In this document: positions 46,982 to 49,770 of the stretch, piece by piece
Layout: every line of letters begins with the position of its first letter
How positions within the stretch are numbered: position 1 is the first letter of the stretch
NCBI GenBank assembly: GCA_963771355.1
Contig: CAVYTA010000005.1
Coordinates: 352,001-416,000 of the forward strand
Source: an uncultured Candidatus Rokubacteria bacterium
Lineage (GTDB): Bacteria > Methylomirabilota > Methylomirabilia > Rokubacteriales > CSP1-6
Length of the DNA stretch: 64,000 nucleotides
Direction: 5' to 3'
Notes under the pieces: generated by a model
Databases searched by the model: none
The model's input: only the letters and a program-made list of their open reading frames with translations
Told to the model about the DNA's origin: nothing
Translations under genes and position numbers: made by a program

Positions 46982-47009
46982 TTGACAAGTCCGCCTTCGT
47001 ACATATACA
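46982..47009 (+). promoter_or_regulatory. Putative sigma70 promoter for the cfa-like operon
   Basis: TTGACA-16bp-TATACA in an AT-rich patch. Confidence 0.45.
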
Positions 47010-47028
47010 AAACATTGAGGACGTCGAC

Positions 47029-47376
47029 ATGCCCTCACTTCTTCGGCCCCGCCCGAGCGCCCGTGTCGCCGCGCCCCTCCTGGGCGAGGTTTTCAAGGGT
47101 CTGCGGCACCCCCTCGCCTTCCGGTTGTGGGACGGCACCGAGGTCCGGCTCGGTCAGGGCGAGCCGGCCTGTAGCGTCGTCATCCACGCGCCGGAGACCT
47201 TCATCGCCCTCATCCGCGATCCCAGCCCGGGCCACTTCGCCGAGGCGTATGCCTCCAACGCCATCGACATTCAGGGCAATCTCTTCGACGCCATGCGCGT
47301 GGCCAACGAGGTCGAGGAGATCAAGGTGACCCCCGGCCAGCGGCTGCGCATCTTGCTTTCCCTCTGGAAGTCCTGA
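47029..47376 (+). CDS. Stand-alone N-terminal (lipid-binding-like) domain of Cfa-type methyltransferases
   Basis: FRLWDG and FAEAYASNAIDIQGNL resemble the LWDG and GEAY..G..D..GD motifs of Cfa N-termini; GAGG RBS. Confidence 0.72.
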   Translation: MPSLLRPRPSARVAAPLLGEVFKGLRHPLAFRLWDGTEVRLGQGEPACSVVIHAPETFIALIRDPSPGHFAEAYASNAIDIQGNLFDAMRVANEVEEIKVTPGQRLRILLSLWKS

Positions 47377-47379
47377 GTC

Positions 47380-48507
47380 GTGGCCGTCCACGACGTCCTC
47401 GTGGTGGGAGGCGGCCCCGGCGGGAGCACCGCGGCCTGGCAACTGGCCCGCGCCGGCCTGCGCCCGCTGGTGCTGGACGCCGCCGTCTTCCCCCGTCAGA
47501 AGATCTGTGCGGGCTGGGTGACGCCCACCGCGCTCGCCGACCTCGAGATCGAGCCCGACAAGTACCCGCTCACCATCCAGGGCTTCGCCGCCTGCGCGCT
47601 GGCATTCGAGGGTGCGCGCCATGACACGCACTGGCGGCGGCCCGCCTCCTACGGCATCATCCGCCGCGAGTTCGATCACTTCCTCCTCGAGCGCGCGGCG
47701 ACCGCGGGAGCGGAGGTGCGCGAGGGCGTCCGCGTCAAGGCGGTCACCTCCGGCCCCTCGGGTGCGCGCGTCGAGACCGAGCAGGGCGACTTCGAGGCGC
47801 CCCTGGTGATCGGGGCCGGCGGCCACCGCTGTCCCGTGGCCCGCGATCTCGGCGCGGTGTCCGCGCGCGAGGAGGTCGTGGCGGCGCAGGAGACCGAGAC
47901 GCGGTTACTCCCTCAGTGGCGGGCGCGGATCGAGCGCTTCATGGACGCGCCCGAGATCTACGTGGAGCCCGACCTGCGGGGCTACGGCTGGTTCTTCCCC
48001 AAGGGCGACTTCATCAACGTGGGCATCGGCATCACGGGGGGCAACGACGGGAGCCTGCCGAAACGGCGTGACGCGCTGCTCGCCATGCTGCGCGCCACCG
48101 GCCGAGTGCCCGAGGGGATGCCGCTCGACCCCTTCAAGGGGCACGCGTATGTCGTGCGCCGCCAGGCGCCGCGGCGCCTCGCCGGCCCCGGCTTCTGCCT
48201 CGTGGGTGACGCGGCGGGGCTGGCCCGCGATCTCTCCGGCGAAGGCATCGGGCCCGCGATTCGCAGCGGCATCCTCGCCGCCGCGGCGGCCCACCGGCTC
48301 CTCCGCGCCGGTGGCTCCCTCGATGGCTATGCGCGCGAGGTGGTGGCGCTCTACGGGCCCGGTGAGCCCTCCTGGATCGGGCGGCAGATCGGCCGGCTCC
48401 CGGACGTGCTGGCACGGCTGGCGGTGCGCGTGGTGCTCGGCTCGGAGCGCGCGCGGCGCCGCGTGGTCTTCGACTCGATCTTCGGCATGAAGGAGGCCAC
48501 TTCATGA
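47380..48507 (+). CDS. Geranylgeranyl reductase-family FAD-dependent oxidoreductase
   Basis: VVGGGPGG, FPRQKICAG, RREFD, GYGWFFPKG, VGDAAG, SGEGI. Confidence 0.88.
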   Translation: MAVHDVLVVGGGPGGSTAAWQLARAGLRPLVLDAAVFPRQKICAGWVTPTALADLEIEPDKYPLTIQGFAACALAFEGARHDTHWRRPASYGIIRREFDHFLLERAATAGAEVREGVRVKAVTSGPSGARVETEQGDFEAPLVIGAGGHRCPVARDLGAVSAREEVVAAQETETRLLPQWRARIERFMDAPEIYVEPDLRGYGWFFPKGDFINVGIGITGGNDGSLPKRRDALLAMLRATGRVPEGMPLDPFKGHAYVVRRQAPRRLAGPGFCLVGDAAGLARDLSGEGIGPAIRSGILAAAAAHRLLRAGGSLDGYAREVVALYGPGEPSWIGRQIGRLPDVLARLAVRVVLGSERARRRVVFDSIFGMKEATS

Positions 48508-49403
48508 GGCGGAGCAAGAAGCGGGACGCCGAGGCCATCTCGTACCACTACGACCAGTCCAACGAGTTCTACGCCCTGTTCCTCGACCCGCTCATGGTCT
48601 ACACGTGCGCCTACTACCGGGACCCCGACGGCAAGCTGGAGCAGGCCCAGGCGGACAAGCTGGACCTGGTGTGCCGCAAGCTGCGGCTCAAGCCCGGCGA
48701 GACCCTGCTCGACATCGGCTGCGGGTGGGGGAGTCTCGCCATCTGGGCCGCCCAGCACTATGGCGTCCGGTCTCACGGCGTGACGCTGTCCCGCGCCCAG
48801 GCGGAGTTCGCCGCCGCGCGCATCGAGCGGGAGGGGCTCACCGGGCGCTGCCTGGTGGAGTACCGCGACTTCCGTGACCTGCCCGCCGATGCGCGCTACG
48901 ACAAGATCGCCGCCATCGGCATCATCGAGCACGTGGGCCTCGCCAACTATCCGGCGTTCTTCGGCCGCGTGCGAACGATGCTCAACGACGGCGGCTACTA
49001 CCTCAATCACGGCATTACCCACGAGTTTCACTGGAAGCCCACCACCCAGACGGACTTCCTCTACAAGTACGTCTTTCCCAATGGGGAGCTGGCGGGGCTC
49101 ACCGAGACCATGACCGAGCAGGAGCGGGCGGGCTGGGAGATCGTGGACGTCGAGGGGCTGCGGCTCCACTACGCGCGGACCTGCCGCGAGTGGGTGGAGC
49201 GGCTCGAAGCGCGGGCCGACGAGGCGCGCGCCCTCGTGGGAGAGCGGATCTACCGCATCTGGCGCCTCTACCTCACCTGCTCGTCGGTGGCGTTCCAGGA
49301 AGGGCATATCGGGCTCTACCAGGTCCTCATGCGCAAGCAGTGGGATGGCACGTTCGACGTGCCCACCACACGCGAGGACCTCTATGGTAAAGATTACCGA
49401 TAG
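48504..49403 (+). CDS. cfa: Cyclopropane-fatty-acyl-phospholipid synthase family methyltransferase (catalytic domain only)
   Basis: HYDQSNEFY, MVYTCAY, LLDIGCGWG, EHVG, YVFPNGEL, HYART. Confidence 0.9.
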   Translation: MRRSKKRDAEAISYHYDQSNEFYALFLDPLMVYTCAYYRDPDGKLEQAQADKLDLVCRKLRLKPGETLLDIGCGWGSLAIWAAQHYGVRSHGVTLSRAQAEFAAARIEREGLTGRCLVEYRDFRDLPADARYDKIAAIGIIEHVGLANYPAFFGRVRTMLNDGGYYLNHGITHEFHWKPTTQTDFLYKYVFPNGELAGLTETMTEQERAGWEIVDVEGLRLHYARTCREWVERLEARADEARALVGERIYRIWRLYLTCSSVAFQEGHIGLYQVLMRKQWDGTFDVPTTREDLYGKDYR

Positions 49404-49483: not shown

Positions 49484-49499
49484 AGGCAGGGAACTTGCT
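49484..49499 (+). promoter_or_regulatory. Putative sigma54 promoter
   Basis: AGGCAGGGAACTTGCT, GG-N10-GC, 20 bp before ATG 49519. Confidence 0.5.
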
Positions 49500-49518
49500 A
49501 CCTGCGTCGGGGGTGGAC

Positions 49519-49770
49519 ATGGTGCGCTATCTGTTCGTCGTTTCGAAGTCCAGACCCGATCTCGCTGACTACCTCGTGCGGCATTTTTCCGATGAAGAGG
49601 ACGTGCTGGTGACCATCGATCGGCGGCGCGGCGAGCGGCGGCGGCGTCTGACCGATACGGATTCAGAGCGGCGGCACGGACATCGCCGCTGGCGGCCTGA
49701 AAATGACGAGTCGCTGGCGTCCGTGGGGGCCTTCATGGTCCCTCTGGACGCGCCCGAACCCGTCGCCTGA
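49519..49770 (+). CDS. Small hypothetical protein with DRRxxERR motifs
   Basis: MVRYLFVVS...IDRRRGERRRR...ERRHGHRR. Confidence 0.72.
   Translation: MVRYLFVVSKSRPDLADYLVRHFSDEEDVLVTIDRRRGERRRRLTDTDSERRHGHRRWRPENDESLASVGAFMVPLDAPEPVA

Follow-up and report, generated by a model that had tools for sequence, protein, structure and literature searches.

A split Cfa-type methyltransferase around a TmpA-subfamily flavoprotein gene in Rokubacteria: a candidate operon for methyl-branched lipids

INTRODUCTION

Two described operon types are the closest counterparts of the genes reported here. The first, tmpBA (ten-methyl palmitate), is found in Desulfobacter, Desulfobacula, Marinobacter, and Thiohalospira (Blitzblau 2021, PMC7791843) and consists of one full-length methyltransferase gene followed by tmpA. 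The donor species make 10-methyl-16:0 (PMC7791843, supplement 1), and expression of tmpBA operons in E. coli led to 10-methylene-16:0 in four of five cases (PMC7791843). Neither in E. coli nor in yeast did TmpA yield a product, and in the accessible text of that report it is only a putative reductase (PMC7791843). The second type is bfaAB/tmsAB of Actinobacteria (Machida 2017, PMC5660069; Blitzblau 2021), whose flavoprotein, BfaA, is stated to be non-homologous to TmpA (PMC7791843).

The methyltransferases of both systems are relatives of cyclopropane synthase. In E. coli Cfa, the N-terminal domain binds lipid, and the two domains remain associated when they are expressed apart (PMC9851988). 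Splitting the E. coli protein nonetheless lowers activity significantly (PMC11387697, citing Hari 2018), and the linker of the single-chain enzyme matters for activity. The same source names the bicarbonate ligands as Glu239, His266, and Tyr317 (PMC11387697). In soils, 10Me16:0 is taken to indicate Actinomycetales (PMC5754377).

Here, we describe a locus within a 64,000-nucleotide stretch of the genome of an uncultured soil bacterium of Candidatus Rokubacteria (GenBank assembly GCA_963771355.1, contig CAVYTA010000005.1, positions 352,001 to 416,000), referred to as the window. Like tmpBA, the locus has a TmpA-subfamily flavoprotein gene adjoining a gene for a Cfa-type methyltransferase without Phe before the bicarbonate Glu. 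It differs from tmpBA in that its methyltransferase is encoded in two genes around tmpA, in that this methyltransferase comes from a Cfa lineage other than that of either published TmpB type, and in that a desaturase gene is appended in one subclade of the split layout. The two-step chemistry proposed for bfaAB/tmsAB is proposed here as well, and the catalytic domain falls in BfaB's broad tree group. However, the partner belongs to the geranylgeranyl-reductase (GGR) family, to which BfaA is unrelated, and BfaB is one two-domain chain, whereas the window enzyme is split. On these sequence comparisons, a tmp-like route with a split methyltransferase of separate origin is the most likely reading; by gene structure and by TmpB orthology, the locus would not be tmpBA.

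RESULTS

Three intact, closely spaced genes

The locus comprises the following features, with positions counted from the first nucleotide of the window:

47017..47021, + strand: GAGGA, 7 nt before the ATG of the small gene; from its sequence, a likely ribosome-binding site
47029..47376, + strand: gene for the 115-aa Cfa N-terminal domain, ATG start; predicted lipid-binding subunit with an SCP2-like fold
47380..48507, + strand: gene for the 375-aa TmpA-subfamily flavoprotein, GTG start; predicted methylene reductase
48491..48496, + strand: AGGAGG, 7 nt before the ATG of the catalytic gene; from its sequence, a likely ribosome-binding site
48504..49403, + strand: gene for the 299-aa catalytic domain of a Cfa-type SAM methyltransferase, without N-terminal domain

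All three open reading frames are intact and on the plus strand. Three nucleotides separate the stop codon of the small gene from the GTG of the reductase gene, and the reductase and catalytic genes overlap by an ATGA. The AGGAGG that would serve the catalytic gene sits within the 3' end of the reductase gene, and a purine-rich stretch occupies that position in 15 of 15 such junctions among those listed. Compared with six relatives, dN/dS was 0.13 to 0.27 for the small gene, 0.12 to 0.17 for the reductase gene, and 0.04 to 0.10 for the catalytic gene; all three are under purifying selection. A frameshift or pseudogene is ruled out by the intact frames, the order kept in relatives, and the low dN/dS, in agreement with an earlier note on this DNA that had described three intact genes. 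Chance or an assembly error is likewise ruled out by the dN/dS values, the recurrent gene order, and the small protein's 66 relatives, which mostly measure 113 to 118 aa.

The genome containing the window is 99.8% complete, and a search of it with the small protein found a single copy, at the window locus. A promoter consensus scan of the upstream region found none, although TTGACA is present at 46982 to 46987. Contigs from soil and rhizosphere RNA libraries span all three genes and both junctions, and also the upstream intergenic stretch. Past the operon lies a 91-aa open reading frame (49495 to 49770, plus strand) whose central part is rich in arginine and which matches nothing in Pfam.

The small protein is a free-standing Cfa N-terminal domain

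The resemblance to the Cfa N-terminal domain that had been noticed in the 115-aa protein holds up by several measures. It matches Pfam DUF7884 (E 2.4e-9, above the cut-off) and covers positions 6 to 82 of the 393-position CfaB model with 34.1 bits. Profile comparison with the N-termini of unsplit CfaB-like proteins gave 99.8% probability over 107 columns, so that the homology check proposed for this protein came out positive. The AlphaFold model (pLDDT 79) has as its best fold match residues 4 to 93 of L. acidophilus Cfa (Z 7.5, rmsd 2.8, 86 aligned), followed by SCP2 lipid carriers at Z 5 to 6.6; Z scores at this level are middling, and the profile comparison carries more weight. By homology, then, the protein is the N-terminal, SCP2-like domain of Cfa; soluble lipid carriers and UbiJ have this fold as well.

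The middle gene encodes a TmpA-subfamily flavoprotein

The protein encoded between the halves passes the cut-off of the GGR-family model TIGR02032 (172.4 versus 158.8 bits). It carries five of five motifs picked by eye from five published TmpA proteins (PMC7791843, supplement 3); all five also occur in 76 of 120 close homologues, and other GGR paralogues have none or one. In a quick tree of 48 rows, split-type reductases form one group (98%), and together with Marinobacter-type and Desulfobacter-type reductases they form one clade (98% SH-aLRT) apart from nine other GGR-family rows; the tmpBA reductases in this tree are Acidobacteriota stand-ins, the published Tmp proteins having been compared by eye and motif. 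On this family evidence, the middle gene is a TmpA-subfamily reductase gene, with methylene reduction as its predicted activity, and the GGR-family assignment made in the earlier note is thereby sharpened. That note had also treated such enzymes as established flavin reductases. The family match stands; the demonstrated activity does not, as TmpA was inactive in every assay of the one paper on it (PMC7791843).

The closest solved relative of the flavoprotein is the archaeal digeranylgeranylglycerophospholipid reductase (PDB 3OZ2), which reduces double bonds of membrane lipids. The relationship is distant (E 2e-21), and 3OZ2 acts on an isoprenoid substrate and, unlike the window protein, is without a methyltransferase partner. 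The TmpA-type enzyme could in principle be an isomerase, hydratase, or oxygenase that turns the methylene lipid into another end product, given that the fold family includes halogenases and monooxygenases and that reductase activity was never shown in the accessible text of PMC7791843. We regard this as improbable, in part because the nearest protein of solved structure reduces double bonds in lipids. Desulfobacter species are sulfate reducers and strict anaerobes. Desulfobacter is among the 10-methyl-16:0 producers in which the tmp operon was identified (PMC7791843), and the operon's presence in such an anaerobe argues against an oxygenase. The predicted methylene reductase is the reading we retain.

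TmpA-type genes also occur elsewhere. Among 401 genomes of Acidobacteriota, 25 have one, and in 24 of the 25 a Cfa-type gene adjoins it. A search of a plasmid collection for a TmpA orthologue found none.

The methyltransferase derives from a CfaB-like lineage

The 299-aa protein matches Pfam CMAS (E 3e-92, 309 bits versus a cut-off of 27) and covers positions 99 to 393 of the CfaB model with 358.7 bits. The curated cut-off of that model, NF040703, is 650 bits; a split protein cannot be scored whole against it, and the halves score 358.7 and 34.1 bits. For both halves, the cyclopropane synthase CfaB is the best NCBIfam match. The SAM motif (D70-G72-G74) is present, and the bicarbonate ligands are kept as E142, H169, and Y223, which correspond to E. 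coli Glu239, His266, and Tyr317. In domain content, SAM motif, bicarbonate ligands, and SCP2-like N-terminal domain, the enzyme thus resembles CfaB and E. coli Cfa. Those are single chains, unlike the window enzyme, whose N-terminal domain is encoded separately 1.1 kb upstream.

The split catalytic domains group in a single clade (100% and 99% in two trees), located within a group that contains CfaB-like proteins and BfaB (93% in one tree and 99% in the other) and apart from the Marinobacter-type clade. The identity to Marinobacter/Thiohalospira-type TmpB stand-ins, assigned by the motifs EAGCGWG and IFPGAYPP, is 37 to 42%, in separate clades. An AU test with 39 of 91 rows and the simpler LG+G4 model, set up after a quick 91-row tree had been viewed, rejected a single clade of split catalytic domains with Marinobacter-type TmpB (P = 0.006). 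Together, the separate clades and the AU test rule out a split TmpB; the published Desulfobacter TmpB looks E. coli-like by eye. The methyltransferase of the earlier note stands as a Cfa-type catalytic domain without its N-terminus, and belongs to a CfaB-like lineage rather than being orthologous to TmpB. The phylogeny with TmpA, TmpB, TmsB, and Cfa that had been called for, as run with stand-ins for the Tmp proteins, divides in the same way, with the reductase inside the TmpA clade and the methyltransferase outside that of TmpB.

The origin of the small gene was examined separately. The three full-length Cfa proteins that match the small protein best, P0189 to P0191, are also the closest to the catalytic domain among 25 longer matches (50 to 53%), and because these relatives coincide, a single gene severed at the linker is the likely source of both halves. 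A chimera of a TmpB N-domain and a CfaB-like C-domain is disfavored, as CfaB-like N-termini score highest with both small-gene profiles (medians of 72 and 57 bits, versus 27 and 24 for the TmpB type). Four of the six CfaB-like rows in that scoring had been found with the small protein itself; the two found via the catalytic domain alone also outscore every TmpB-type row. These comparisons indicate that both halves likely derive from a CfaB-like lineage and that the methyltransferase is not a split TmpB. The 25 longer matches included no fused form of N-domain, reductase, and C-domain and no re-fused form, which is weak evidence. P0187 and P0188, for their part, look like assemblies with a frameshift or a chimeric join.

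The residue before the bicarbonate Glu

The position of E. coli Phe238, immediately before the bicarbonate Glu, is Ile141 in the window catalytic domain. It is Phe in the Cfa proteins of E. coli, L. acidophilus, and Aquifex and in CmaA1. Six BfaB and five TmpB sequences (PMC7791843, supplement 3) have T, L, or M there, with Phe in 0 of 11. Reductase-adjacent rows, from about five lineages and with the window protein included, lack Phe in 87 of 87 cases; these are 80 TmpA-adjacent rows, 3 BfaA-adjacent rows, and 4 re-assigned rows (L032, L135, L139, and L171) that a score threshold had placed under "no reductase" yet that adjoin a TmpA gene. L171, spotted via its Met, is a Desulfobacter-type tmpBA. 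The other 63 rows include 31 from an E-A motif subfamily (5 with Phe), which were set aside, and 32 with no reductase in the locus, 20 with Phe and 12 without. All of these counts include kin, so the rows are not independent. Loss of Phe accompanies the reductase in about five lineages. It is not sufficient alone, because 12 of 32 comparable enzymes with no reductase in the locus are also non-Phe. From this alignment pattern, the non-Phe residue is a candidate product signature. In searches that covered mainly literature outside subscription journals, we found no account of Phe238 as a product switch or of the split layout.

The nearest unsplit relatives of the window enzyme are CfaB-like, are 50 to 55% identical to it, and are annotated as cyclopropane synthases. 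That closeness, the CfaB matches of both halves, and the retention of all three bicarbonate ligands would suit a split but otherwise ordinary cyclopropane synthase, with the flavoprotein acting elsewhere or on the ring afterwards. We consider this unlikely. BfaB and TmpB keep the same ligands as the window protein, and the split lineage departs from its unsplit kin both in its reductase neighbor and at the Phe position: of those nearest relatives, 78 of 80 carry Phe, and their 80 metagenome loci (42 of them at least 6 kb long) yielded neither a TmpA or BfaA motif nor a reductase match. Moreover, the reductase is held between the halves across two phyla, at about 50% identity. A methylene-forming enzyme acting with its reductase neighbor thus remains the preferred reading.

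Distribution and gene neighborhoods

The layout was surveyed in sets of loci that overlap and consist of kin. Around 22 small-protein loci, the order N-domain, reductase, C-domain was found in 19, two of them with frame breaks in the reductase, and in the other three the reductase comes after a full-length cfa. Around 22 catalytic-domain loci (at least 73% identity), the reductase is upstream in all 22 and the small gene is visible in 20; a contig end truncates one of the other two, and the small gene of the second shows up in a longer stretch. The reductase query had matches in 97 of 158 genomes of the window's Rokubacteria family, one of which is a 35% paralogue only, leaving 96. A second phylum (named members: Nitrospinaceae, Nitrospinota or Tectomicrobia) has the reductase orthologue in 41 of 51 genomes; 30 of the 41 were examined, with all three genes in 28 and contig ends cutting the other 2. 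The suggested survey of gene order thus shows the three-gene arrangement recurring in the Rokubacteria family and beyond it. One genome, G010, has three copies of the block on three contigs (L007, L008, and L013), by duplication or bin mixture.

Among the matches listed, 21 genomes have a DesA-like desaturase match 786 to 1,110 nt beyond the reductase on the same strand, and four more show the desaturase in sequence, for a total of at least 25 Rokubacteriales genomes. In 12 genomes checked in sequence, it lies directly 3' of the catalytic gene. The window genome has no desaturase at the locus and two DesA-like desaturases on another contig. A 352-aa gene with a weak UPF0047 match follows the desaturase at L202:5595-6653, a possible fifth operon gene, and relatives of it occur in seven of the eight loci L200 to L207. 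In loci of the second phylum (e.g., L210:849-4953), genes for an ETF subunit, an Mrp/ApbC-like Fe-S carrier, and an EamA-like protein lie a few kilobases upstream; this group occurs in about 10 of 12 loci and is either a lead to the electron donor or plain synteny. At L297:2402-4310 (G039:C171), a Marinobacter-type tmpB remnant and a partial tmpA have a DesA-like desaturase directly after them, the second instance of a desaturase coupled to TmpA.

A different arrangement was found in one acidobacterial genome, G548 (L122:1486-3934, G548:C8), where a divergent stand-alone catalytic Cfa domain comes first, an SCP2 protein of 144 aa (Pfam E 2e-10) second, and a TmpA-type gene third. This single case suggests that a free lipid-binding domain can accompany methyl-branch chemistry more than once. 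With G548 included, TmpA-type genes are paired with at least four Cfa lineages.

Elsewhere in the window genome, a divergent full-length gene resembling Cfa and a further Cfa-like match, 28% identical to the catalytic domain, lie within about 3.5 kb at L194:3450-7018 (G000:C3), with no reductase in the stretch. Apart from FabA/FabZ, for which a search at 99.8% completeness gave no match, the genome has FAS II, with fabH, D, G, F, acpP, and plsX; lpxD runs straight into lpxA (C6, near 932600 to 934400). The FabZ/FabA family is present in only 9 of 41 relatives and in 0 of 7 in the genus. The dehydratase of the window genome may be of another type.

No support for a link to Methylomirabilis

10-Methyl-16:0 has been called putatively diagnostic for Ca. 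Methylomirabilis in sediments (bioRxiv 2021.11.24.469942), and the earlier note had connected the locus with that lipid. The connection fails in a 20-genome genus taken as Methylomirabilis from pmoA in 10 of the 20. The reductase query found orthologues in 0 of 20 genomes (seven candidates scored per genome), and a CMAS/Cfa-family gene is present in 1 of 20, divergent and with no reductase within 1.5 kb. In five genomes of 99 to 100% completeness, the best CMAS scores were E 7e-10 or weaker, and the GGR-family genes fell outside the TmpA clade when placed in the tree. One candidate, a weak CMAS match near a GGR-family gene in four genomes, was rejected as another methyltransferase beside a type III PKS-like gene. 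In those loci (L069:6158-10453 in G113:C1, and L070 to L072), a methyltransferase gene and a flavoprotein gene cluster with the type III PKS-like gene, and a further methyltransferase gene adjoins the group.

DISCUSSION

The three genes probably act on a cis-unsaturated fatty acid of the membrane and give it a mid-chain methyl branch, most likely yielding 10-methyl-16:0. The methyl-branched lipid pathway put forward in the earlier note is thus still the best reading, as a prediction from family placement and neighbors. Anatomy, conservation, family placement, and gene neighbors were read directly; from them we infer the chemistry, the subunit contacts, and the branch position, the last because the position of the double bond is itself inferred. 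A DesA-like desaturase would supply the cis double bond. The small SCP2-like subunit would dock on the catalytic subunit and present the phospholipid, and the catalytic subunit would pass a SAM-derived methyl on to the lipid. The bicarbonate base would then leave an exo-methylene group rather than a cyclopropane ring, and the flavoprotein would reduce the methylene to a methyl group with an electron donor. The arrangement may have arisen by a single fission of a CfaB-like gene at the interdomain linker, with tmpA inserted in the gap.

The enzymes might instead act on an isoprenoid lipid or on one bound to a carrier, the freed domain serving as a shuttle. The SCP2-like fold is common to soluble lipid carriers, Cfa relatives without the N-terminal domain such as CmaA exist (PMC11387697), and GGR-family enzymes act on isoprenoids. 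Still, the neighboring desaturase is of the membrane DesA type and both halves descend from two-domain Cfa proteins of the phospholipid type, and we consider such a substrate very improbable next to a membrane phospholipid.

A more far-reaching version of the phospholipid pathway would make the locus a third independently recruited route, run by a complex of three subunits whose freed SCP2-like domain hands the lipid from the methyltransferase on to the reductase; Rokubacteria would be a major unrecognized source of soil 10-methyl-16:0, and the pre-Glu residue would be a cyclopropane/methylene switch that predicts function across the Cfa family. Taken as a whole, this version is doubtful. If its carrier reading is true, a missing carrier or donor could explain the failure of TmpA in heterologous hosts.

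The operon is a natural split Cfa, whereas the engineered split was impaired. Its TmpA comes from hosts with DesA-type desaturases and is possibly oxygen tolerant, which would be of interest for branched-oil production. The comparison of Ile141 with Phe238 gives rise to a one-residue hypothesis for cyclopropane versus methylene formation. Finally, if the operon makes 10Me16:0, a large uncultured family of Rokubacteria would contribute to the soil marker signal.
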